From: an uncultured Rhizobium sp.
GTDB taxonomy: Bacteria > Pseudomonadota > Alphaproteobacteria > Rickettsiales > UBA1997
Assembly (NCBI GenBank): GCA_964513555.1
Contig: CAZENB010000002.1
Span: forward strand, 1-49,081
Length of the DNA: 49,081 bases
Direction: 5' to 3'
Within the stretch, counting starts at the first letter, position 1. Each line of letters begins with the position of its first letter. A program made the position numbers and the translations under genes. Below are positions 3,664-44,655 of the stretch, piece after piece. Below the pieces are notes generated by a model. The model searched no databases, was not told where the DNA came from, and worked only from the letters and a program-made list of their open reading frames with translations.

Positions 3664-5183
3664 AGCTAAACCAATTTATTGATAAAATAGAAATTTCTTA
3701 CGAATTAATTTATGGTGCAAGTTTTATTGATGAAATTTTAGTTGAAGATATTGCAATTGACTCGCGTTTAGTAAAAGAAAAAACAGCCTTTTTTGCTATA
3801 AAAGGTAAAGTTCTTGATGGCAACTTTTTTATTAATGATTCTATAAAAAAAGGCGCCTCAGTAATTGTTTCTTCTGATATTGAGTTTTTAAAGAATTTAG
3901 CTTTAGTCGATGAGAAAGTGCTGTTAATTTTTTCTCAAGAAATTCATAAGCTTCTTATAGAATTTTTGCAGAATTTCTATTCAAATTTACCTTCAAATAT
4001 CTACGCAGTTACAGGAACTAATGGTAAAACTTCAGTTGCTGAGTTTTGTCGTCAAATTTTTACATTAGCTGGAAAAAAAGCAGCTTCAATTGGAACTTTG
4101 GGTGTTACTTGTGATTACTTAGACCAGAATCAAATTCAACAAACTGCTCTTACAACTCCTGATATAGTTTCTTTTTACAAAAACCTTTCTTTTTTGAAGA
4201 AAAACGGTGTTGATGATGTTGCAATTGAAGTTAGTTCAATTGGGCTTGAACAAAACCGAACTGGCAAAGTTGGTATTACAGTTGGTGCTTTTACTAATTT
4301 TACCCAAGATCATTTAGATTATCATAATACCATGGAAGAGTATTTTGATTGCAAAATGATTTTATTTAAATCTGTTTTGCAACAAAACTCTACTGCAGTT
4401 ATAAATAGTGATATCAAAGAGTATCAAGAAATTAATGAAATTTGTCAGAAAAGAGATTTAAAAGTCATAAGTTATGGCTTTGAAGCAATTTCAAAGAATT
4501 CTTTGCGAATTATAAATATAGAACAAACTTTTGAGGGACAAAAAGTTGCCTTTGAATTTTTGGGTGAAGAATATAATTTTAATTTGTCTATTAGTGGTGA
4601 TTTTCAGGCTTATAACGCAATTTGTGCTTTAGGTATTTTTCTTTCAAACAATAGTTGTTCTAAGAAACAATTGGAAGAAATTTTGCAAAATTTCCATAAA
4701 CTACATTCTGCTTTGGGAAGAATGCAAATAGCAGGAGTTTTGCCAAATAAAGCTCAAGTTTTTATTGATTTTGCACATACTCCGGATGCTTTAAGTAATG
4801 TTTTGCAATTGGCACGTAAAATTACCAATAAAAAAGTGGTAGTACTTTTTGGTTGCGGTGGAAATCGTGATAATAAAAAAAGAGCAATTATGGGAAAAGT
4901 TGCTTCAGAGTTAGCTGATATTATTATAGTTACTGATGATAATCCAAGATTGGAAGATGCAAAAAAAATTCGTGCTGAAATTTTGCAAGGATGTGATTTG
5001 AAAAAAGCTTTTGAAATTGCTAACAGGGAAATTGCAATTACTAAAGCAATTCCAATGTTGCAAAGTTATGATATTTTGATTTTGGCTGGTAAAGGTCATG
5101 AAAAATATCAAATAATTGGTACAAACAAAGTTGAATTTGATGAGGAAAAAATTGTTCGAAATGTTGTTGCCAGAATATCTTAA
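3660..5183 (+). CDS. murE: UDP-N-acetylmuramoyl-L-alanyl-D-glutamate--2,6-diaminopimelate ligase
   Basis: VTGTNGKTS P-loop, DDNPR(LED) DAP-specificity motif, Mur ligase domain order. ATGA overlap with pyrF. Confidence 0.92.
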   Translation: MKLNQFIDKIEISYELIYGASFIDEILVEDIAIDSRLVKEKTAFFAIKGKVLDGNFFINDSIKKGASVIVSSDIEFLKNLALVDEKVLLIFSQEIHKLLIEFLQNFYSNLPSNIYAVTGTNGKTSVAEFCRQIFTLAGKKAASIGTLGVTCDYLDQNQIQQTALTTPDIVSFYKNLSFLKKNGVDDVAIEVSSIGLEQNRTGKVGITVGAFTNFTQDHLDYHNTMEEYFDCKMILFKSVLQQNSTAVINSDIKEYQEINEICQKRDLKVISYGFEAISKNSLRIINIEQTFEGQKVAFEFLGEEYNFNLSISGDFQAYNAICALGIFLSNNSCSKKQLEEILQNFHKLHSALGRMQIAGVLPNKAQVFIDFAHTPDALSNVLQLARKITNKKVVVLFGCGGNRDNKKRAIMGKVASELADIIIVTDDNPRLEDAKKIRAEILQGCDLKKAFEIANREIAITKAIPMLQSYDILILAGKGHEKYQIIGTNKVEFDEEKIVRNVVARIS

Positions 5184-8100
5184 AACAAAATTCCAAATTG
5201 ATTTTATTGACCTTTATGATGTTGAGGGATTAAAAAAAGTTGATGAAAAATTTTCACAATTTCTAGAACAAGAAAATAATCAATTAAACAAAGATTTTTT
5301 ACAGTTAAAAAAAGATAAAAATAGTTTTACTGCTAATCAGCAATCCTTAATTCTAATTGATGTAGCGGTTGTGTTAGAAAAGTTCTTAGTTACTTTATTT
5401 AACATAGAAAAAGAAAATTCAGAACTAAAAAGTAAGCATGATAACTTAAAAAATATTTACAAAATTAGACGTAATTTTGTTCAAAGAGATGTTGCAAAAA
5501 GTTTTTCTAGTTGCCCAAGGGATATTGATGGATTTTCAATCTTAAAAAATTTGAAAATTGAGTTTGATGATGTTGATGATTTAGAGAAAAAGATTGCTGA
5601 AGAGATAAATTTGGGAAGGAATTTAAAAGATCTTACGAATTATACAATATGGGCCATATATAGTGATGAAGGGAAAAAATTTCATAAAAATGGTGCTCTT
5701 TTTATTATTCCACAAAAAATTGATTGCAATAACTTGCTTGCCTCAAGTCATGAAAAATCTAAACGTTCAGATTTTAATCTAACTGATCAAGGATTTAATT
5801 TAAATCGTGTTTTAGGAGAATCCAACTATTGTATTTTTTGCCATAAACAACAGAAAGATTCTTGTAGAAGTGGTATTAAAGAACGATCTTCTTTTTGTTA
5901 TCCTGAGAGCAGCGAAGGATCTTGTACAACAAACTCAGGATTTTCTCAAGATTCTTCGTTTTTGCCTCAGAATGACAAGAAGAGATTTCAAGATGAAAAT
6001 AAATTCAAGAAAGATGAGCTTGGCATTGATTTGCATGGATGTCCACTTGATGAAAGAATTTCAGAAATGAATTTACTAAAGTCAGAAGGCTTTTCAGTTG
6101 CGGCTCTTTCAATTGCAGTTGTTGATAATCCAATGATTGCTGGAACTGGACACAGAATTTGTAATGATTGCACAAAATCTTGTATTTATCAAAAACAAGA
6201 ACCAGTCGATATTCCTCAAATTGAAACTAGAACTTTAAAAGATGTTCTGAATTTACCTTATGGATTTGAGATTTACTCTTTATTGACTAGATGGAATCCA
6301 CTCAATTTAGATCAAAGTTTACCTAGAGAAAATTCTGGTAAAAAAATTTTAATTGCTGGTCTTGGTCCTTCAGGATACACTTTGGCGCATTATTTGCTTA
6401 ACTCAGGACATGAAGTGGTTGCAATTGATGGTCTTAAAATTGAGCCTCTAAACAAAGAGATATCTGGATTAGATGAGTTTGGAAATATTTGCGATTTTAA
6501 GCCTATTAAATTTTTAGATGAAATTTACGAACCTCTATCATCGCGCTTGATTCATGGTTTCGGTGGTGTTGCTGAATATGGAATTACAGTTCGTTTTGAC
6601 AAAAATTTCTTAAAAATTATTAGAATTATTTTAGAACGCAGAAGAAATTTCAGAATGTTTGGAGGAATTCGTTTTGGGTCATCAATTACTGACAAAATTG
6701 CATTTGAAAATTATGGTTTTGACCATGTAGCGCTTTGTCTTGGAGCTGGTCGTCCCAACATAATTAATCTTAAAAATAACTTTGCCAAGGGTGTGCGTCA
6801 AGCTTCTGATTTTTTGATGTCTTTACAGTTAACGGGTTCTTTCAAAGAAAATTTATTTACTAATTTGCAAATTAGAATGCCAATTGTTGTTATTGGTGGA
6901 GGATTAACTGCAGTTGATACAGCTTGCGAAGCAAGAATGTACTACGTAAGTCAAATTAAAAAATTTGTCCAAAAAGTTGAAAAAATTGGTAAAAATAACC
7001 TATTTTCATTGCTTACTAAAGAAGAAAAAATAATTGCTGAAGAATTTATAAGTCATGCTTCTGAGCTTGAAAATAGTGGTGATATTGATTTTTTGATTAG
7101 AAAGTGGGGTGGAGTTAAAATTTTATATCGTAAAAAAATTCAGGATTCTCCAGCATATAAGTTGAACCACCAAGAGCTTAACAAAGCTTTTGAAGAAGGA
7201 ATTGAGTTTATTGAAAATATTAGTCCTTTGGAAGTTGAAATTGATGAATTTAATCATATCAAAGCTTTGAAATGCGCTGATGATAAATTATTTGAATGTA
7301 GATCTTTGTTAGTTGCGGCTGGAACTTCACCAAATTTATCTCCAAAATTAGAGGATAATTTAGATTTTAAAATTGATGGAAAATATTTTGCACAAACCGT
7401 GCATTTTAATTCCAATTTTGGCTCAAGACACTTTAATTTTATTACTAAAATTGATGATAAAACTAAAAAAGCGGTAAGTTTTTTTGGGGATTTGCATCCA
7501 AATTTTGAAGGAAATGTGGTAAAAGCAATGGCAAGTTCCAAGATTGGCTATAAGCAGATAAATCAAATGCTGGAATTGTTACAAAATAAAGAAAATCACA
7601 ATTTTCTGGATAAAATTAAATCAGAATTTTCAGTAATAATTCATAAAATTGAGAAACTATCAGATCATGTTTGTCAAATTTTTATTAAAGCTCCACTTTT
7701 GGCAAATCAGACAGAGCTGGGTCATATTTTTAGATTGCAGAATTATCATGCTCTTGCCTTAAAAGATGAAAGTGGTCATTTAATGGTAATGGAAGGAGTT
7801 CCTTTGACGGCTTTAGATGTTGATCGTGAAAATGGAATTATTACAGCAATTGCTTTGGATTTTGGTGGCTCTACATCTCTTATTAAAAATTTAAGTGAAG
7901 GTGAGCCTTGTATTTTTATGGGACCTTCAGGAAAACCAACCGAAATTTCAAAAAATGAAACGGTGTTGTTAATTGGAGGTGGAAGAGGAAATCAGCCTTT
8001 AACTGCTCTTGCTAGAGCTTTTAGAAACAATGGTTGTAGAGTAATTTACTTTGCTGGTTATCGCAAAAATTCTTACATTGTGAATCAAGAATTGATGGAA

Positions 8101-8550
8101 AAAAACTCTGATATTGTTGTTTTTGCAATTGAAGAAGAAGCCCCAAATTTGAATCTAATCAATGAATGCAATCAAGTAGTAAGTGGATCAGTAATTGAAG
8201 CGCTGAGAATTTACTTTGTCAAAAACCCTGTAAAAATTGATCGTGTATTTACAATTGGAAATAATAAAATGATGCATGAAGTTGCAAAATTGAGACATGA
8301 TGGTTCAGTTAAATCTATCTCAGAAGCAAAAATTGCTATTACTAGTTTAAATTCTCCAATGCAATGTATGCTAAAAGGCGTTTGTTCACAGTGTTTGCAA
8401 AAAAGAATCAATCAGCAAGGTAAAGAGGAGTATTTTTATTCTTGTGGTGATCAAGATCAGAATATGGATAAGTTTGATTTTAATCACCTGAAAAATCGTT
8501 GTGAGCAGAACTCTTTGATGGAAAAAACAATAAAAAATTGGTTGAATTAA
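5161..8550 (+). CDS. large multidomain iron-sulfur flavoprotein: GltD-like (4Fe-4S Cys motif plus NAD(P)/FAD Rossmann) fused to a PyrK/FNR-like domain with a C-terminal 2Fe-2S Cys motif
   Basis: CIFCHKQQKDSC...GCPLDERISEM (GltD-like cluster motif). ILIAGLGPSGYTLAHYLL and VVIGGGLTAVD dinucleotide folds. C-terminal FMGPSGKPT...LLIGGGRGNQP...CMLKGVCSQCLQK...YSCGDQD (PyrK-like). The start is ambiguous (TTG 5116, ATG 5140, ATG 5161); 5161 was chosen to minimise overlap with murE. Confidence 0.65.
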   Translation: MLLPEYLKTKFQIDFIDLYDVEGLKKVDEKFSQFLEQENNQLNKDFLQLKKDKNSFTANQQSLILIDVAVVLEKFLVTLFNIEKENSELKSKHDNLKNIYKIRRNFVQRDVAKSFSSCPRDIDGFSILKNLKIEFDDVDDLEKKIAEEINLGRNLKDLTNYTIWAIYSDEGKKFHKNGALFIIPQKIDCNNLLASSHEKSKRSDFNLTDQGFNLNRVLGESNYCIFCHKQQKDSCRSGIKERSSFCYPESSEGSCTTNSGFSQDSSFLPQNDKKRFQDENKFKKDELGIDLHGCPLDERISEMNLLKSEGFSVAALSIAVVDNPMIAGTGHRICNDCTKSCIYQKQEPVDIPQIETRTLKDVLNLPYGFEIYSLLTRWNPLNLDQSLPRENSGKKILIAGLGPSGYTLAHYLLNSGHEVVAIDGLKIEPLNKEISGLDEFGNICDFKPIKFLDEIYEPLSSRLIHGFGGVAEYGITVRFDKNFLKIIRIILERRRNFRMFGGIRFGSSITDKIAFENYGFDHVALCLGAGRPNIINLKNNFAKGVRQASDFLMSLQLTGSFKENLFTNLQIRMPIVVIGGGLTAVDTACEARMYYVSQIKKFVQKVEKIGKNNLFSLLTKEEKIIAEEFISHASELENSGDIDFLIRKWGGVKILYRKKIQDSPAYKLNHQELNKAFEEGIEFIENISPLEVEIDEFNHIKALKCADDKLFECRSLLVAAGTSPNLSPKLEDNLDFKIDGKYFAQTVHFNSNFGSRHFNFITKIDDKTKKAVSFFGDLHPNFEGNVVKAMASSKIGYKQINQMLELLQNKENHNFLDKIKSEFSVIIHKIEKLSDHVCQIFIKAPLLANQTELGHIFRLQNYHALALKDESGHLMVMEGVPLTALDVDRENGIITAIALDFGGSTSLIKNLSEGEPCIFMGPSGKPTEISKNETVLLIGGGRGNQPLTALARAFRNNGCRVIYFAGYRKNSYIVNQELMEKNSDIVVFAIEEEAPNLNLINECNQVVSGSVIEALRIYFVKNPVKIDRVFTIGNNKMMHEVAKLRHDGSVKSISEAKIAITSLNSPMQCMLKGVCSQCLQKRINQQGKEEYFYSCGDQDQNMDKFDFNHLKNRCEQNSLMEKTIKNWLN
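5900..5977 (+). repeat. palindromic element family 1, copy A, inserted in frame in the flavoprotein CDS
   Basis: Left arm atcctgagagcagcgaaggatct (5900-5922) and right arm agattcttcgtttttgcctcagaatgaca (5949-5977) are imperfect inverted repeats. The 78 nt equal 26 codons and encode (Y)PESSEGSCTTNSGFSQDSSFLPQND. The arms match copies at 15398, 45721 and 36191. Confidence 0.75.
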
Positions 8551-9447: not shown

Positions 9448-10668
9448 ATGTCTGTAGAAGATAATAAAAAACAAAGCTCCCCCTCTTATGCTTCAGAAGT
9501 TTTGTTAAAAGGCACTGCTGGACATATTTTGGGTCCATTTGCGAATATCACTGAAGACAAAACTGTTGATGCAAATGGCATCAAAATTTCATCAGAAGAA
9601 GTTATGAGAGCAAGAAACTCAAAAAGAGTTTCAGAACTTGACGCAGCAAAAAATCTTGCTTTATCATCTATTGCAAATCTTAATCCTAAAAGAACTAACA
9701 AATATCAAGTTTTTGCTGAAGCTGCAATGCGTACAATGCTTAGAGGTTTGAAAAGCAACTTAGATTATTCAGGAAATGAAAAACACGCTAAATTAATAGA
9801 TAAGTGGGAAAATAAAATTGCAGAAGGAGATCTTTTAAGTGAGGCTTTATGTGCTCAAATGGTGAATGAATTTTCAGCGGAACTTGCTAAAGTTGATCCA
9901 GTAGCAGCAAAAAAATATCAAGATGATGCTAATTCTTCTTTGAAAGAGGTTTTTGCTGGTATTGAAAAAAATTCACAAAATTCTGATGAAAGATGGAAAT
10001 GGCAATTGCTACAAATGTTTGCTGTATTTACTCCTCTCGGAGCATTTTCAATTGCTGGTCATGTTTTTAATTACCTTGAACCTTTAAGTGAAATTTTTGG
10101 TCATATTTTTTCAAGTGAAGGAATTGCTCAAGGAGTTGCTGATATTTTGACTGATAAAAAACTTGGACCATTTGCATGGCTTGTTGAACAAATGAAGGTT
10201 GATTATGCAGTTGAACAAGTATTAACAAAAACTCCTATCTTAAGTGACCTTCTTGATGCGGCAAGTCTTATTACTACAAGCGATATAGTCCATGATTTAG
10301 GAGGAACTGTTGCTCCATCTTTGGGTTCTGAGTTACCATTAATTTTGATAGCCGGCGGTATGATAGCTTATCAAACTCCTGATGAAATTGATCACCAAAA
10401 ATCATCATCAGTACTTGAAGCTGAGAAAAAATCCGCTTTGAAAAAATTAGATGCCTATCCAATAAAGCCTCAAATAGCTAAAAAAGAAGAGAAAAAATCA
10501 GAAACCAACGTTTCAATTTCTTCTGAGATTGAAAGAATTAACAGTCAAAATAATTCGCAAAATAAAACCCCATCTCCTTCTGCAAAAATAAACTCTGTTG
10601 CTACAAAACTTTTAGAAGAAAATTCTAAAGATAACAAAAAAAAAGGTGGTGGAATTGGGGTTTATTAA
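9448..10668 (+). CDS. hypothetical protein (orphan); two predicted TM segments and a K/E/S/N-rich C-terminal tail
   Basis: 406-aa ORF with coding-like composition and no signal peptide. Hydrophobic stretches LLQMFAVFTPLGAFSIAGHVF and LPLILIAGGMIAY. The tail runs KKEEKKSETNVS...NSQNNSQNKTPSPS...KDNKKKGGGIGVY. I recognise no family. Confidence 0.6.
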   Translation: MSVEDNKKQSSPSYASEVLLKGTAGHILGPFANITEDKTVDANGIKISSEEVMRARNSKRVSELDAAKNLALSSIANLNPKRTNKYQVFAEAAMRTMLRGLKSNLDYSGNEKHAKLIDKWENKIAEGDLLSEALCAQMVNEFSAELAKVDPVAAKKYQDDANSSLKEVFAGIEKNSQNSDERWKWQLLQMFAVFTPLGAFSIAGHVFNYLEPLSEIFGHIFSSEGIAQGVADILTDKKLGPFAWLVEQMKVDYAVEQVLTKTPILSDLLDAASLITTSDIVHDLGGTVAPSLGSELPLILIAGGMIAYQTPDEIDHQKSSSVLEAEKKSALKKLDAYPIKPQIAKKEEKKSETNVSISSEIERINSQNNSQNKTPSPSAKINSVATKLLEENSKDNKKKGGGIGVY

Positions 10669-37049: not shown

Positions 37050-38070
37050 ACATTAAAATTAAGTTTTCTTCTAATTTTTGTAAATCAACAATTAAGCTTC
37101 CATGGTGAAAATCTTTTACTTTACTGTTTTCTCCAATTTGGCATTCTTGATATAAGTAGTTTATATTTAATATTGAAGATAGTTTGTAATAGTCGGTAAG
37201 CAATTTATTATCGCTGGGTTTGGTTGCCATTTCTAATAAATAACTATTTTCTTTCATGAATAAAATATTTGTTAATCCTGCTCCATGTGGGCTTATAAGA
37301 TATTTTGTCTTTGTACTAATTGCAATTTGCTCATCATAAGAAAATTCGTCAATAATTACTTTTTTAAAGCCATATTTTTCTAATACTTTTATTAATTCTT
37401 CTTCATTTTCAACAAATCGTAAAACTTGATTCTGGCGCGAGATGTATATTTTTTCACCAAAGTCAAAATTAGTTTTTTTGATATTAGTTGTTAGAACATT
37501 TCTTAATTTATTAAAAGCGACAGGATTTTGTTGAGATGTTTCAAGCAAAGCTAGCTCTCTTACTTTGATGTTTGATTTTCTTGGAAGAAAGATGATTTGA
37601 TCACTTGAAATTCCCATTTTTTTGAGTGATGGCAAAACAAATTTATATTTTTTATATTTTTTTGGTAAAACTAAAATAGCATTTTCAGTTAATTTCTTTT
37701 TCTGAAGAATTAGTAACTTTGATAAAGCAAAAATATGCCAATGGTAGTAATTGCTAGTCCACTCATCGGTAATCAAAATGAATCTTTTTTTGCTAAAATT
37801 TAATTTTGGGAAAATAAATTTTATAAAAAATTTGTAACCTTTTTTATAGAGATCGTAGTTATTTTCGCTAATACAACTTTCTCTGTAGATTTTAAAGTAA
37901 TTAAAGACAACGCTATTTGTTGCAATTCTAACATTTTTTAGCAAATTAATTTTTGGCTCAAGGTAATTCTCTTCAGAAGAATTGCCAAATATTTTAAATT
38001 CAGAATTATTTTCTTTAAAATTAAGAGGCTTTTTGTAGTAAATTGTTAGTGGTGAAAAAATATTTTTCAT
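37021..38070 (-). CDS. glycosyltransferase family 61 (DUF563) protein
   Basis: SNYYHWHIFALSKLLIL and ISPHGAGLTNILFM motifs typical of DUF563/GT61. The 3' end overlaps the ygfZ start. Confidence 0.75.
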   Translation of the reverse strand: MKNIFSPLTIYYKKPLNFKENNSEFKIFGNSSEENYLEPKINLLKNVRIATNSVVFNYFKIYRESCISENNYDLYKKGYKFFIKFIFPKLNFSKKRFILITDEWTSNYYHWHIFALSKLLILQKKKLTENAILVLPKKYKKYKFVLPSLKKMGISSDQIIFLPRKSNIKVRELALLETSQQNPVAFNKLRNVLTTNIKKTNFDFGEKIYISRQNQVLRFVENEEELIKVLEKYGFKKVIIDEFSYDEQIAISTKTKYLISPHGAGLTNILFMKENSYLLEMATKPSDNKLLTDYYKLSSILNINYLYQECQIGENSKVKDFHHGSLIVDLQKLEENLILMFEHGKNNSN

Positions 38071-38131: not shown

Positions 38132-38564
38132 ATGAAAATTATAAACGCAATTCACGCACAAAATGTTGGTGGTGTAGATCAAGTTTTTTGTAATTATGCC
38201 AAAGTTCTTACTTGTTGGAGTGGTTAAAAACAAGCCAAATTTTTTCAAAGATGTTGATATTTTTTGTGTTCCATCAAGAGAAGAGCCATTTGTTTTGGTA
38301 ATTTTGGAAGGATTCTTACATTCAACTTTGGTTATATCGTCAAATACTGATGGAGGAAAATTACTAATTGAAAATGGTGAAGATGGATTTTTATTTACAA
38401 ATGAAGATGAAAAAAATCTTGCAGAAAAAATTGAACTTGCTTTAAAAAGTTCAGAAGTTTATGAAAAATTAACTAAAAAAGCTTTTGAAAAGCTTGAAAA
38501 CAAATTTAGTATAAACAATCTTGCAAAAGAAATATCTAAAATTTTACAAGTCATTGCTGGATGA
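38132..38564 (+). pseudogene. decayed GT4 glycosyltransferase (N-terminal 31 codons plus frameshifted C-terminal Glycos_transf_1 fragment; the middle is deleted)
   Basis: 38132-38227 encodes MKIINAIHAQNVGGVDQVFCNYAKVLTCWSG*, a GT4 N-terminus. In another frame, 38196-38564 encodes ...DIFCVPSREEPFVLVILEGFLHSTLVISSNTDGGKLLIENGEDGFLF..., a GT-B C-terminal motif. About 200 aa of a normal GT4 are missing. Confidence 0.7.
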
Positions 38565-38890
38565 TAAAAAAATTACTTTTACTAACTTTAATGTTTTTTA
38601 CTAGCTCTTGCTGGATGATGGCTGAACCAATGCCACCAAGTTGGAATTGGGGTGCAAAACCTCGTCCTCTTACTGGTGTGAGAAATTTTCCATCAACTGA
38701 AAGTGAATATGGAAAAGGTTTTAAAGATGGTTGTGGATCATCTTGGGATGTTGTTACTAAAGGTTTGCTATCTGATATTAATGAAAAAAAATATGATTTT
38801 CTAAGAATGCAAAAAAGTCCAGACTACAATACCGGTTGGTGGGATGGATATGAACAATGCACTTATATTGTTGATTGGGATGTTGTATAG
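38561..38890 (+). CDS. small lipoprotein, paralog 1 of the G[WF]xDGC family
   Basis: Lipobox MFFTSSC; motifs YGKGFKDGC and YNTGWWDGYEQC; ATGA overlap with the upstream pseudogene. Confidence 0.8.
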   Translation: MIKKLLLLTLMFFTSSCWMMAEPMPPSWNWGAKPRPLTGVRNFPSTESEYGKGFKDGCGSSWDVVTKGLLSDINEKKYDFLRMQKSPDYNTGWWDGYEQCTYIVDWDVV

Positions 38891-38918
38891 TTGTAATAGA
38901 GAAAAATTTATAATTAAA

Positions 38919-39272
38919 ATGAAAAGTTTTATAGTTAATTTTATGTTGTTACTTCTAATAATTTCTTGCAGAAAGCCAGATAATTTTGGTTTTTATCAGC
39001 CAATTACTATGAGTTTAAAAGTTCCAGATGGTCCTGCAGAGTATCAAGCTGGCTGGCATGCTGGTTGTAAAACAGCTTTATCACAAAAAACCTTTGCAAA
39101 TGCCAGCGTTTATTTAACTCCAAATCATGGTCCTGATTTAGGAAATGGTATTTATCAGCATGATTCTGCTTTTCAAACTGGTTGGGGTCAGGGTTGGTTT
39201 GCATGTATATTACATATTTCTGGTTTTGTCACAGATAATTATAGGGCTATGAGATATGGACCTTTAGATTGA
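38919..39272 (+). CDS. small lipoprotein, paralog 2
   Basis: MKSFIVNFMLLLLIISC lipobox (ATG 38919 preferred to the track start 38844); motifs YQAGWHAGC and FQTGWGQGWFAC. Confidence 0.75.
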   Translation: MKSFIVNFMLLLLIISCRKPDNFGFYQPITMSLKVPDGPAEYQAGWHAGCKTALSQKTFANASVYLTPNHGPDLGNGIYQHDSAFQTGWGQGWFACILHISGFVTDNYRAMRYGPLD

Positions 39273-39279
39273 TTGATTA

Positions 39280-39633
39280 ATGAGAAAATACTTTTTTAGT
39301 TTAATAACTTTAGTTCTAATGACTTCTTGTAAATACGAGGTTGCAAAAAGTCTTTTTCCAGAAAGGCCTGATTCTGCTTTTAAAGAAGATTTAGAAAAAG
39401 CATCGCCTGATTTCCGCCTTGGTTGGCGAGATGGTTGTGAAACTGGTATGTCTGGAGGCTCAAATACATTTTATAAAATATTTTATCGTAATAATGCATC
39501 TGATGGTTACAGAATGACGAGTTCATCTGATTATAAAACTGCATGGGGTAATGCTTTTTGGTATTGTTACCGTCATGACTATGTTAAACAAAAAAGTGGT
39601 ATTTGGGGTTCAATGTTTAAAGGATATCAGTAA
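39280..39633 (+). CDS. small lipoprotein, paralog 3
   Basis: Lipobox LVLMTSC; motifs FRLGWRDGC and YKTAWGNAFWYC. Confidence 0.8.
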   Translation: MRKYFFSLITLVLMTSCKYEVAKSLFPERPDSAFKEDLEKASPDFRLGWRDGCETGMSGGSNTFYKIFYRNNASDGYRMTSSSDYKTAWGNAFWYCYRHDYVKQKSGIWGSMFKGYQ

Positions 39634-40172
39634 TGGTTAGAAATTTACTTTTATTTATTGTAATATTCCAATTTTCTTCATGTAAATGGTTTACGCGTAT
39701 AGGAAGTCCTTTTTTTTCTGGCACTAATATTAAAATTCCAGATGGAACTCCGACATTTCAAAAAGGCTTTAAAGATGGATGTTCAAGTTCGACATATGCA
39801 AGGGGAAATGTACTTTATCGTAATAAATATGGTTATAGATATGATCCGAATATGATTGGTAATTCTGAATATCGTTTTGGTCATTCAAGAGGTTATACTT
39901 GGTGTTTCCAACAAGCTCTTTCTGGTGATACTGGTCCAGTTGGTTCTTGGGATAAATATATACATCCTGGAGGATATGACTCAACATTTAGTTCTGGTAA
40001 TATTGAAGGGGCGTGGGGTGGTTTTTTTGGTGTTCACGGCGCATCTTTAGGGCAATCAGTTGGAGGTGATGTCGGTGGGTTTGTGGGGGTTTTAACAAAT
40101 GGTGGCTCCAGTGTTCATAATGCTAATCCATTGTGGGCTGGTGGTTCATCGGGGCAAATTTTTGGACAATAA
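39633..40172 (+). CDS. small lipoprotein, paralog 4, with Gly-rich C-terminal extension
   Basis: Lipobox FQFSSC; motifs FQKGFKDGC and YRFGHSRGYTWC. Tail GAWGGFFGVHGASLGQSVGGDVGGFVGVLTNGG. 1-nt overlap with paralog 3. Confidence 0.8.
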   Translation: MVRNLLLFIVIFQFSSCKWFTRIGSPFFSGTNIKIPDGTPTFQKGFKDGCSSSTYARGNVLYRNKYGYRYDPNMIGNSEYRFGHSRGYTWCFQQALSGDTGPVGSWDKYIHPGGYDSTFSSGNIEGAWGGFFGVHGASLGQSVGGDVGGFVGVLTNGGSSVHNANPLWAGGSSGQIFGQ

Positions 40173-40173
40173 A

Positions 40174-40692
40174 ATGAATATTAAATTTTTTTTTATACTT
40201 TGCTTGATTATAGCCTTATCAAATTGTGTTCCGAATTGGTGGAAGCCTTATGGTTATCAAGTATTTAAACAAATGCCAAAAAATGGATCTCCAGGATATA
40301 CTTTAGGTTGGATTCATGGTTGCCAGTCTGGTCTTGGAAGCCAATTTGGCGGTGCTATTTATATGACTTTTTATACTTGGAGTAGAGATCCAGATATCGC
40401 TTCAGTAAATCCAGATATTCCAAAAATAAGAGCGCGTTATAAAAAGGAGCTAAGGGCGGTAAATTGGGATAATCCTGCAGATGTAAAGAAAAATTTTAGT
40501 GATTACAATACAATTTTTTGGGGGGCTCATTCATTTTGTCGCCACTCAACACTTGGAATTTTGCAAACTGCAGCAATGGCTCCCAAACTTCCAGGGGAAG
40601 ACCGACATACTTGGGATGAACATAGTTTAGGTAATATTTGGAAAATTAATGGTAAAGGTGATACAAGATATGCTGTTGGTGGTTTATGGTAG
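40174..40692 (+). CDS. small lipoprotein, paralog 5
   Basis: MNIKFFFILCLIIALSNC lipobox (ATG 40174 preferred to the track start 40099); motifs YTLGWIHGC and YNTIFWGAHSFC. Confidence 0.75.
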   Translation: MNIKFFFILCLIIALSNCVPNWWKPYGYQVFKQMPKNGSPGYTLGWIHGCQSGLGSQFGGAIYMTFYTWSRDPDIASVNPDIPKIRARYKKELRAVNWDNPADVKKNFSDYNTIFWGAHSFCRHSTLGILQTAAMAPKLPGEDRHTWDEHSLGNIWKINGKGDTRYAVGGLW

Positions 40693-40933: not shown

Positions 40934-42916
40934 ATGCTTCCTTTTCTTGTGGTATTTTTGCCTCTTTTTGGTTTCCTTATTAGTGGATTTTGTTCTCGTG
41001 TTGTATCGACAAAAGTTTCTCAGCATTTTGTTGATAAAATTGCTCAAGTTCTAACAACCTTTCTTTTAATAGCTTCAGCAGCTTGTGCTGTTACAATCTT
41101 TTCTGATTTCGTAATTCGTGGCGAAGACGCAAATCAAAATATCAAGCTTCTTACCTGGATTTCTTCTGGTACTTTCAATGTTAATTGGTCACTCAATATT
41201 GATCAAATTACAGCAATAATGCTTGTAGTGGTAACAGTGGTTTCAAGTTTAGTTCATATTTATTCAACCGCTTACATGCACGAAGATAAGTCAATTGCGC
41301 GTTTCATGTCTTATCTTTCACTGTTTACATTTTTTATGTTGGTTTTAGTAACAGCTGATAATTTTTTACAACTTTTTGTTGGTTGGGAAGGTGTGGGTTT
41401 GGCTTCTTATCTTTTGATTGGTTTTTGGTTTAAAAAGCAATCAGCAAATGCTGCTGCAATTAAAGCATTTGTTGCAAACCGTGTTGGTGATTTTGGACTA
41501 ATTATTGCTATCTCACTAATTTATGCAACTTTTGGAACTGTTGAATATTCTGCAGTTTTTTCAAGTGTAAGTGATCATTTGAACGATCAGTTTTGGTTAT
41601 TTGGAAAATCATTTAGAAGCCTTGATGTAATTTGTATTGCTCTTTTTATTGGTGCAATGGGTAAATCGGCACAAATTGGTTTGCATGTTTGGCTTGCTGA
41701 CGCGATGGAAGGTCCAACTCCAGTTTCTGCTTTAATTCACGCTGCAACAATGGTTACAGCTGGTGTTTTCTTGGTTGCAAGATGCTCCCCAGTTTTTGAG
41801 TATTCTGATATTGCTTTGGCAATGATAACATTGGTTGGAGCAACAACTGCAATTTTTGCCGCAACAATTGCAATCACACAAAATGACATTAAAAAAGTTA
41901 TTGCCTACTCAACTTGTTCACAGCTTGGCTATATGTTTTTTGCTTGTGGTGTTTCAGCTTATTCAGCGGCAATTTTTCACCTTGCAACACATGCTTTCTT
42001 TAAAGCCTTACTTTTCTTGGGTGCGGGCAGTGTAATACATGCAATGCATCACGAGCAAGATATTCAAAAAATGGGAGGAATTTGGAAAAAAATTCCAATC
42101 ACTTATGCAATGTTTTGGATTGGATCTCTTGCTCTAGCTGGTTTTCCTCCATTCGCTGGTTACTATTCAAAAGACTTGATCTTAGAAGCAGCTTATATGT
42201 CTCACGCACCTTTTGCTAAACTTGCTTTCGTTCTTGGTTTAGCAGCTGCATTTTTGACAGCTTTTTATTCTTGGCGTTTGTTATTTTTAGTTTTTCATGG
42301 TAAAACTAGATCTGACAAACACACATTTGACCATGCTCATGAATCACCAAAAGCAATGTTAATTCCTCTCTTTGTTTTAGCCTTTGGATCAGTTTTTGCT
42401 GGTTTTGTTGGTGCTAAATTTTTACATATGATTTCTGCGGAACATAACTTTTTTGGTTCAGCAATTTTCTTACTTCATGAGAATAAGTCTATCCTAGAAG
42501 AAGTACATCACGCTCCATTTTTGGTTAAAATATCTCCTCTAATAGTTGGTATTATAGCAATTTACTTATCTTATGTGTTTTATCTTGTAAAAACTGAATA
42601 TCCGGCAAGACTAGCTAAAAAGTTTAATAATTTATATAAAATTTCCTTCAATAAATGGTATTTTGATGAAATTTATGAATCAGCATTTGTAAGTCCAACT
42701 AAGAAATTAGGAACATTCTTGTGGAAGTTCTTTGATATTAAAGTAATTGATGATGTTGGTCCAAACGGCATAGTTCTGTTATGTAAAAAAGCAGCACAAA
42801 AGGTAAGTAAAATCCAGACAGGTTATATCTATAACTACGCTTTATGGATGGCTATTGGTTTGGCTGTGATAATGATGTTTTTGTTGTCGTCTTTCAAAGA
42901 TATACTAGCCTCATAA
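40934..42916 (+). CDS. nuoL: NADH-quinone oxidoreductase subunit L
   Basis: 660 aa. Antiporter-like core (WEGVGLASYLLIGFW, GKSAQIGLHVWLADAMEGPTPVSALIHAATMVTAG) plus the C-terminal lateral-helix region with KWYFDEIY. Confidence 0.92.
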   Translation: MLPFLVVFLPLFGFLISGFCSRVVSTKVSQHFVDKIAQVLTTFLLIASAACAVTIFSDFVIRGEDANQNIKLLTWISSGTFNVNWSLNIDQITAIMLVVVTVVSSLVHIYSTAYMHEDKSIARFMSYLSLFTFFMLVLVTADNFLQLFVGWEGVGLASYLLIGFWFKKQSANAAAIKAFVANRVGDFGLIIAISLIYATFGTVEYSAVFSSVSDHLNDQFWLFGKSFRSLDVICIALFIGAMGKSAQIGLHVWLADAMEGPTPVSALIHAATMVTAGVFLVARCSPVFEYSDIALAMITLVGATTAIFAATIAITQNDIKKVIAYSTCSQLGYMFFACGVSAYSAAIFHLATHAFFKALLFLGAGSVIHAMHHEQDIQKMGGIWKKIPITYAMFWIGSLALAGFPPFAGYYSKDLILEAAYMSHAPFAKLAFVLGLAAAFLTAFYSWRLLFLVFHGKTRSDKHTFDHAHESPKAMLIPLFVLAFGSVFAGFVGAKFLHMISAEHNFFGSAIFLLHENKSILEEVHHAPFLVKISPLIVGIIAIYLSYVFYLVKTEYPARLAKKFNNLYKISFNKWYFDEIYESAFVSPTKKLGTFLWKFFDIKVIDDVGPNGIVLLCKKAAQKVSKIQTGYIYNYALWMAIGLAVIMMFLLSSFKDILAS

Positions 42917-44088: not shown

Positions 44089-44655
44089 CTAATTAGAAAT
44101 ATTAGCTATTAACTCTTTATCTCTCATCATATTACTAACCAGTTCGTGCAATAGATTGTTAATGTTATTTTCATCTGTTGAAGCAAAAGAGGAAATAAAG
44201 TGCTTATTTTTAAATTCTAAAGTATAGTTTTTGCTAAACTCTTTATTTTTACCTTTGTTATCTTTTACATCAACTCTGATAACTCCTTTAGTTTCAGAAT
44301 TTCCTATAGGAAACCCACGTTGTGCTTTATGAATTAAAGTTTTAATTCTTACTTCTATTATTTTATCATTTCCTTCTATAAAACCCTGATTTACTAAGTT
44401 TTCTTTGATTTTAAACTTTAAAATGTCTGCTAGATTTTGCTCCGAAAAAACATTAACTCTTGTTTGACCAAACTTCTTTTTCCCCAAAATTTTCTTATTG
44501 TGTCTTTCATCAGAAACTCTTAGATCAAAGGTTTTTTTTGCAATTGAGTTACTTTTATTTTCGTTTTCGACATCAAAATTAAAAACAATTTTTTGATTTT
44601 TATATGAGCAAGAAAAACTTGCGAGAAGAGCGAAAATCAGCAGTAGTTTTTTCAT
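44089..44655 (-). CDS. lipoprotein, possibly YajG-like
   Basis: Lipobox LLASFSC; 188 aa. Size and motif order are loosely like YajG (Lipoprotein_16), which is a weak assignment. Confidence 0.45.
   Translation of the reverse strand: MKKLLLIFALLASFSCSYKNQKIVFNFDVENENKSNSIAKKTFDLRVSDERHNKKILGKKKFGQTRVNVFSEQNLADILKFKIKENLVNQGFIEGNDKIIEVRIKTLIHKAQRGFPIGNSETKGVIRVDVKDNKGKNKEFSKNYTLEFKNKHFISSFASTDENNINNLLHELVSNMMRDKELIANISN

Follow-up and report, generated by a model that had tools for sequence, protein, structure and literature searches.

A fixed array of five small paralogous lipoproteins in uncultured Rickettsiales, possibly the subunits of one cell-envelope complex

Here we show that a stretch of 49,081 nucleotides from an uncultured bacterium of the order Rickettsiales (GenBank assembly GCA_964513555.1, contig CAZENB010000002.1, positions 1 to 49,081; the window in what follows) carries five adjacent genes for small predicted lipoproteins, p1 to p5, which are divergent paralogs of a single domain family and recur as an ordered quintet in distantly related genomes. 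From the fixed number and order of these genes we infer, with moderate confidence, that their products are subunits of one hetero-oligomeric cell-envelope lipoprotein complex. As far as the libraries and literature searched show, neither the family of domains nor its arrangement as a quintet has been described before.

Little is known of the envelopes of the Rickettsiales and their aquatic relatives, most of which are uncultured. Operons that encode small envelope lipoproteins are in themselves of a well-known kind. A sequence-only reading of the window had pointed to five packed open reading frames (ORFs) on one strand, of 109, 117, 117, 179 and 172 aa, and their coordinates, overlaps and gaps were all borne out in the sequence (Table 1). 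The remnant of a family 4 glycosyltransferase gene (GT4) overlaps p1 by 4 nt, p1 and p2 are 28 nt apart, p2 and p3 are 7 nt apart, p3 overlaps p4 by 1 nt, and a single nucleotide separates p4 from p5. Alternative longer ATG starts exist for p2 (at 38844) and for p5 (at 40099); the shorter models were preferred because orthologues support ATGs directly before the signal peptides.

All five proteins begin with a basic n-region and a hydrophobic core that lead into a lipobox resembling [LVI][ASTVI][GAS]C, the makings of a lipoprotein signal peptide. The lipoboxes were present verbatim as first read, and orthologues in every one of the five groups conserve them; across the 129 members of our alignment A3 the lipobox Cys does not vary. 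The residues at +2 after it are W, R, K, K and V in p1 to p5, and Asp at this position is absent both from the window proteins and from their orthologues. In p2 orthologues the start and lipobox region is conserved as C-R-x-P-[DE]-x-x-G-F-Y-Q-P. The sole recurrent Pfam match in the family is LPAM_1, a lipid-attachment site, found in 10 of the 129 members of A3 and in 3 of the 81 members of a second profile, A4, which was built from distant relatives only and holds no window-clade sequence. Aromatic residues make up 15-20% of the mature proteins.

Beyond the lipobox Cys, each window protein has two more cysteines and no others (exactly three in total). They lie in two motifs, both of which were found letter for letter in all five proteins as the sequence-only reading had quoted them, and are separated by 41-46 aa in p1 to p4 and by a 72-aa insert in p5. 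Pairwise identity among the paralogs is only 21-30%. Nevertheless, MAFFT lines the motifs up, with the lipobox Cys, G-x3-G-C and the second Cys as invariant columns; C17, G48, G52, C53 and C96 are invariant across the 129 sequences of A3, and the two non-lipobox Cys across the approximately 210 aligned members of A3 and A4 together. With signal peptides cut, the mature proteins still match the hidden Markov models (HMMs) of each of the four remaining orthologue groups, with E-values of 5e-3 to 1e-10 per comparison (p1 and p5 being the weakest pair). The A4 profile matches exactly the five among 208 stop-to-stop ORFs of the window (E 2e-14 to 6e-26), and hhalign joins A3 to A4 with 99.9% probability. 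Sequence comparison has thereby confirmed that the five are true paralogs of one family, for which lipobox ... [YF]xxG[WF]xxGC ... Yxx[GA]Wxxxxx[YF]C may serve as a diagnostic signature. The core of distant members reads P-x-G-P-P-E-Y-x-x-G-W-x-D-G-C-E-S-G ... F-Y-K-x-F-Y ... Y-Y-x-A-W-K-D-A-Y-x-Y-C-R-x-Y.

A word-indexed search for the family returned 442 (A1) and 173 (A2) clusters at 90% identity, all of them annotated as 'hypothetical' and none with a Pfam domain, while an exhaustive HMMER search of 1.84 billion representatives retrieved 693 proteins at E≤1e-3, including 282 at E≤1e-10. All 693 come from metagenomes or metagenome-assembled genomes (MAGs), and the few that are named are Rickettsiales-like (relatives of Gamibacteraceae, and Deianiraeaceae). 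MAG labels attached to members include Rickettsiales bacterium, Rickettsiaceae bacterium, Candidatus Deianiraeaceae bacterium, Pelagibacterales bacterium and Pseudomonadota bacterium, together with a few implausible ones such as 'Rickettsia typhi' and 'uncultured Rhizobium sp.'. Two relatives within the window clade, UBA2645 and RIFCSPLOWO2_01_FULL_40_26 (L009 and L013), have been placed in 'Candidatus Gamibacteraceae' of the Rickettsiales (bioRxiv 10.1101/2021.08.31.458344).

The initial statement that the proteins belong to no recognisable family held up against every library consulted. Neither Pfam nor NCBIfam matched any of the five at E≤10, and in Pfam the members of A3 and A4 returned LPAM_1 plus scattered noise only. 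Sequences in the PDB gave unrelated sub-threshold matches to the A3 profile (best E 0.38) and, to the A4 profile, matches to lipoprotein signal peptides only. PADLOC gave no match at E≤1, and the best match in PHROGs (E 0.02) was to a family of unknown function; with no significant match in either library, a role as anti-phage defence or phage proteins was rejected. Secretin pilotins of the PulS/OutS type, which are likewise small, helical and disulfide-bonded lipoproteins, were rejected as well, there being no Pfam match and no pilotin among Foldseek results from the PDB for the p3 and p5 models. No relevant account of a five-lipoprotein system was found in the Rickettsiales literature.

The main result is the conservation of the five genes as a set. 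Loci of relatives were found with p1 as the query in 16 species-level genomes, and all window-clade loci long enough to judge keep the order p1-p2-p3-p4-p5, each gene being the best match of its window counterpart. Five tandem single-domain genes, with no extra family copies elsewhere in the locus, also occur in L015, L016, L017, L019, L021, L029, L031 and L032, whose GC content ranges from 28 to 56%. On a 467-kb Joint Genome Institute (JGI) contig, for which no DNA was at hand, five small genes stand in a row, of which only the queried one is a confirmed family member. Reciprocal best hits agree with gene position in full, both among L017, L019 and L021 and between the window and L027. The position-1 genes of distant arrays are reciprocal best hits of p1; best hits of p2 to p4 to positions 2 to 4 of L017, L019 and L021 are ambiguous, and are resolved only through the intermediate L027.

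Three further loci (L024, L027 and L030) have four genes but five domains, the second gene carrying two family domains. In L027 position 2 has its best hit in the N-terminal half of this gene, reciprocally so for p2, and position 3 in the C-terminal half, which makes the fusion, as judged from the genes, a Rosetta-stone type joining of neighbours. The second domain of the fusion proteins is without its own lipobox. In all, five domains were found in 11 diverse arrays plus the window clade.

Each paralog also has an end of its own. The C-terminus of p1, DWDVV, recurs as [LVMI]D[WH][DE]V[VT] in 17 of 17 orthologues (which are 46-98% identical across L001-L016), that of p2 is conserved as GPLD and that of p3 as F-x-G-Y-[RKQ], and every one of 62 p5 orthologues ends in W. 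The tail of p4 was initially described as glycine-zipper-like. It is Gly-rich (mature p4 is 20% Gly), and among the 108 orthologues retrieved it varies in length and sequence before a conserved end peptide, PLWAGGSxGQxFGQ, GQxFGQ being the commonest C-terminal ending. Membership of a glycine-zipper family did not stand: p4 has no Pfam family match at E≤10, and such families (for example Gly-zipper and Rick_17kDa_Anti) are absent from the 25 listed of the 29 Pfam families matched by A3 members, 35 p4-type proteins included. In some lineages (L027 6249-6722; P0343 and P0363) the position-4 protein has no Gly-rich tail and instead carries an extra C-terminal Cys pair, e.g. GCKTIFC or GCKGILQC.

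Taken together, the quintet is ancient and fixed, each gene having its own position, an orthologue in distant genomes and its own C-terminal peptide, so that the five are not interchangeable. The initial suggestion of a fold duplicated repeatedly, in the sense of a recent expansion, fails on this point, given that five domains are fixed in nearly all loci from 28% to 56% GC. The genes are also constrained. Ratios of nonsynonymous to synonymous substitution (dN/dS), calculated by the Nei-Gojobori method against the closest relatives, are 0.015-0.32 (Table 1), which indicates real genes under constraint, and p1 to p5 are under purifying and not diversifying selection; the ratio for nuoL, taken for comparison, is 0.11 against L003.

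Structure prediction suggests a compact helical domain. The AlphaFold2 model of p3 (129-sequence alignment, pLDDT 82, pTM 0.72) is confident and all-helical, with motif 1 in a helix at residues 43-59 and motif 2 in a helix at 83-104, and so is that of p5 (108-sequence alignment, pLDDT 85.9, pTM 0.75), with the corresponding helices at 40-54 and 101-132. Foldseek gave no match at E<1 in the PDB for either model, or in BFVD for the p3 model. By sequence, G48, G52 and a usually small residue at 56 share one face of the motif 1 helix with C53 alongside, and motif 2 has a small residue at every fourth position up to C96, as would be expected if a disulfide held two closely packed helices together. 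Exactly two non-lipobox Cys were counted in 203 of 217 window-clade orthologues (about 90%) and in 54 of the 70 distant A4 members scored. A full-length DsbD (27075-28883, with DsbD_N, DsbD_TM and thioredoxin-like domains) suggests that the organism maintains a periplasmic thiol-disulfide system. The invariance of the two Cys, their counts and the presence of DsbD lend circumstantial support to a putative disulfide between them, which we regard as plausible.

We favour a single assembly because the genes keep their number and order, show orthology by position and, in some loci, fusion of neighbours, have individual termini, are under strong selective constraint and share invariant residues of structural character. 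According to the mechanism proposed here, each product would be exported by its lipoprotein signal peptide, its lipobox Cys would receive the lipid, and the exported domain would fold in the periplasm into a compact, all-helical unit, in which the motif 1 helix (G-x3-G-C) packs on the motif 2 helix with its small residues and second Cys, and the two invariant Cys form one disulfide within the domain. Five such subunits would then build a periplasm-facing assembly of fixed stoichiometry, structural or scaffolding rather than enzymatic in nature, since only Gly, Cys and Tyr are invariant. A more specific version, which we advance tentatively and hold to be less probable than the complex as such, is a hetero-pentamer (1:1:1:1:1) with a fold that has no solved relative. 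Four duplications in an early Rickettsiales-like ancestor would have given rise to this envelope machine, and the ancestor's free-living and host-associated aquatic descendants would have kept it intact. Bolder still is the idea that the complex might sit on a respiratory or lipid-transport complex, decorating its periplasmic face, and so be the bacterial counterpart of the disulfide-bonded accessory subunits found in mitochondrial membrane complexes.

Known accessory lipoprotein sets, such as BamB-E, consist of unrelated folds whose genes are usually scattered. With BamB-E of the BAM complex, the assembly suggested here would share the grouping of several small lipoproteins in a fixed-stoichiometry periplasmic structure; the difference, in a comparison drawn from general knowledge, is that here five paralogs of one new helical domain are encoded in one array.

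Several observations weigh against the idea of one complex. A promoter and terminator scan of the array scored no better than shuffled sequence, so that it is gene spacing only that speaks for a single operon. No neighbouring gene conserved across the lineages examined points to a function. One locus, L023 (7489-8522), is the sole exception to the quintet, with two family members only in 16.5 kb, within a sugar-nucleotide/LPS-like (lipopolysaccharide-like) gene cluster; the full five may not be obligatory everywhere, and this locus may represent a reduced or different version of the system. Finally, an outer-membrane location is a guess from the absence of Asp at +2: the sorting rule is established for Enterobacteriaceae, not for Rickettsiales.

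The best-surviving alternative, possible although in our estimate unlikely, is that the five lipoproteins are co-regulated and act independently, each doing a similar job on its own partner or substrate (e.g. as binders, inhibitors or chaperones in the periplasm). In favour are the separate lipid anchor of each protein, the paralog-specific C-termini, which could target five different external partners, and the presence of only two members in L023. What argues against independent action is that the arrays have kept their number of domains, their order and their positional orthology across deep divergence, with neither gain nor loss in the 11 diverse arrays, that three loci fuse positions 2 and 3 and thereby lose one lipid anchor, and that the invariant residues look purely structural.

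The surroundings of the array differ between lineages. In the window clade it stands between GT4 upstream and nuoL downstream, the latter on the same strand about 240 bp past the array in the window and 110-590 bp past it in relatives. Elsewhere it comes after mlaE-mlaF (L017), tail-to-tail with virB10-9-8 (L019), before a prepilin peptidase gene (L021), after tamA-tamB and before tolC (the 467-kb contig), near flagellar rod genes (L029) or among housekeeping genes (L031 and L032). Most neighbours are envelope-related. Partnership with complex I, Tam/Mla or a type IV secretion system was weighed on grounds of synteny and none was adopted, as neighbours differ between lineages; we treat the array as a self-contained module.

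It is improbable that the five proteins dock in the periplasm, as accessory parts, on a TamAB-, Mla- or Pqi-type machine for outer-membrane biogenesis or lipid transport. The position of the 467-kb contig array, directly downstream of tamA-tamB and on the same strand, and that of the L017 array would fit such a role, as would a PqiC-like Lipoprotein_16 gene 3.4 kb downstream of the array in the window. However, the other arrays adjoin nuoL, convergent virB8-10, prepilin peptidase, flagellar rod or housekeeping genes, and our searches detected no sequence or fold likeness to known Tam, Mla, Pqi or Bam lipoproteins.

More doubtful again is a role as periplasmic accessory subunits of respiratory complex I, by analogy with the helical-hairpin CHCH (twin CX9C) subunits on the side of the mitochondrial membrane arm that faces the intermembrane space. 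CHCH proteins are disulfide-stabilised and often serve as structural subunits of larger membrane complexes. Like them, the modelled domain is a small helical and probably disulfide-bonded module of the periplasm or its equivalent compartment, and the linkage to nuoL in the window and its relatives is joined by an array between nuoM/N-like genes and nuoL in L015 and a NuoM/N-family gene 3.4 kb upstream in L031. Yet nuoL linkage is absent in L017, L019, L021, L027, L029, L030 and L032, and the Foldseek PDB library, which holds complex I structures, returned none of them for p3 or p5. Membership of the CHCH family itself was rejected: the twin CX9C pattern, in which each helix has a pair of Cys and two disulfides form, is absent, as each helix has a single conserved Cys and only two are conserved outside the lipobox, and the window proteins differ further in their predicted lipid anchor and the lack of a Foldseek match.

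A still smaller chance attaches to the possibility that the proteins are divergent relatives of DUF2799 (PF10973; E. coli YfiL, b2602), a lead raised in the sequence-only reading, or of RMF, as helical hairpins with the motif aromatic-x-x-G-x-x-x-G. DUF2799 proteins are small proteobacterial lipoproteins of unknown function, in which this helix motif is followed by Cys; YfiL carries WYDVGMEDAISG and YLKGYAEGQKKTC, and RMF (PDB 2jrm) is a two-helix hairpin with Y-x-x-G-x-x-x-G and W-x-x-G-W motifs that ranked second in the p3 Foldseek list (TM-score 0.54 on the target, probability 0.16, E 7.5), behind a match of lower probability. Nonetheless, Pfam matched neither DUF2799 nor RMF at E≤10 in 215 proteins (the five, 129 of A3 and 81 of A4), hhalign of A3 and A4 to YfiL aligned the signal peptide only, over 17-20 columns, and hhalign of A4 to RMF gave a probability of 0.2%. 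Furthermore, yfiL is a single gene in E. coli K-12 and not part of an array, and RMF is cytoplasmic, has no signal peptide and serves another function. The resemblance is, at the level of sequence, one of helix-motif style and not detectable homology, and the lead was dropped.

The tandem arrays of the pathogens Staphylococcus (Lpl/DUF576), Borrelia and Mycoplasma evolve fast and differ in copy number. Of the two roles first suggested for the window proteins, a lipoprotein complex is the better fit; a diversifying or phase-variable surface family like those tandem paralogous lipoprotein genes has next to nothing in its favour beyond the tandem arrangement and strong divergence of the paralogs, and is rejected on the low dN/dS ratios, the 1:1 orthology by position with copy number unchanged across relatives, and a paralog divergence that predates the split of lineages spanning GC 28-56%.

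Unusual here is the combination of a fixed five-paralog set under strong constraint with no curated-family homologue, no PDB fold match and no characterised member. If the complex is real, it would be a multi-subunit envelope assembly built entirely by duplicating one small domain. The new domain family, with about 700 representatives, is suitable for a Pfam entry, and the natural position-2/3 fusion proteins offer ready-made constructs for structural work on domain packing. The find should interest specialists in bacterial envelopes and in Rickettsiales; it establishes no mechanism and opens no long-standing question by itself.

Table 1. Genes and motifs of the array, neighbouring genes in the window, and two-domain genes in three other loci
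Feature	Position	Strand	Product or sequence	dN/dS (compared with)	Basis or remark
p1, position 1	38561-38890	+	109 aa	0.015 (L001)	ORF list and own translation
p1 lipobox	38597-38611	+	FTSSC
p1 motif 1	38708-38734	+	YGKGFKDGC
p1 motif 2	38825-38860	+	YNTGWWDGYEQC
p2, position 2	38919-39272	+	117 aa	0.14 (L025)	ORF list and own translation
p2 lipobox	38958-38969	+	IISC
p2 motif 1	39042-39068	+	YQAGWHAGC
p2 motif 2	39171-39206	+	FQTGWGQGWFAC
p3, position 3	39280-39633	+	117 aa	0.095 (L025)	ORF list and own translation
p3 lipobox	39319-39330	+	MTSC
p3 motif 1	39412-39438	+	FRLGWRDGC
p3 motif 2	39532-39567	+	YKTAWGNAFWYC
p4, position 4	39633-40172	+	179 aa	0.32, highest of the five (L025)	ORF list and own translation
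p4 lipobox	39672-39683	+	FSSC
p4 motif 1	39756-39782	+	FQKGFKDGC
p4 motif 2	39870-39905	+	YRFGHSRGYTWC
p5, position 5	40174-40692	+	172 aa	0.05 (L025)	ORF list and own translation
p5 lipobox	40216-40227	+	LSNC
p5 motif 1	40297-40323	+	YTLGWIHGC
p5 motif 2	40504-40539	+	YNTIFWGAHSFC
GT61	37021-38070	-			intact
GT4 N-terminal remnant	38132-38209	+	first 26 codons		tblastn of L001 GT4 (349 aa), residues 1-26; upstream of deletion junction
GT4 C-terminal remnant ORF	38196-38564	+	122 aa		Pfam Glycos_transf_1, 1.5e-17, profile positions 81-170 only
nuoL	40934-42916				downstream of array; also in L002-L015
Two-domain gene 2, L024	7304-7999				position-2 and position-3 paralogs fused
Two-domain gene 2, L027	5572-6252				position-2 and position-3 paralogs fused
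Two-domain gene 2, L030	6288-6995				position-2 and position-3 paralogs fused

Directly upstream of the array, the decayed GT4 described from the sequence was recovered, together with the intact family 61 glycosyltransferase gene (GT61). A full-length GT4 of about 345 aa is tightly linked to p1 in L001-L013. Against L001, the closest relative, an internal stretch of 616 bp (L001 7036-7651) is missing in the window (blastn), and residues 226-347 of the L001 protein map to window positions 38193-38558 in a frame that differs from that of the N-terminal remnant (tblastn). The window copy is a pseudogene. Downstream, nuoL stands alone, with neither nuoK nor nuoM beside it, and the nuoM/N-like genes of L015 lie upstream of its array on the opposite strand; the nuo genes thus appear to be scattered in this clade. 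The PqiC/YmbA-like lipoprotein gene lies at 44089-44655 (- strand; Pfam Lipoprotein_16, 3e-15), with an orthologue nearby in L005, L008 and L010. On the opposite strand, a TauE/SafE and Alph_Pro_TM gene pair lies upstream of the array in the window clade (window 34450-36137, -) and again in the distant L027 (2436-4098, -), a case of partial deep synteny around the quintet.

Other genes of the window, which is alphaproteobacterial and has a GC content of about 30%, encode MurJ, a Mur ligase, KdtA and a Pal-like OmpA-domain protein, and this presence of peptidoglycan and LPS genes indicates a diderm organism. Two long ORFs were noted at 5116-8550 (1144 aa, with Pyr_redox_2 at residues 410-753 as its only Pfam match) and at 9448-10668 (406 aa, no Pfam match). 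A two-piece (permuted) alphaproteobacterial tmRNA lies at 1329-2265 (Rfam alpha_tmRNA, 162 bits), its 3' end overlapped by sspB (1726-2265).

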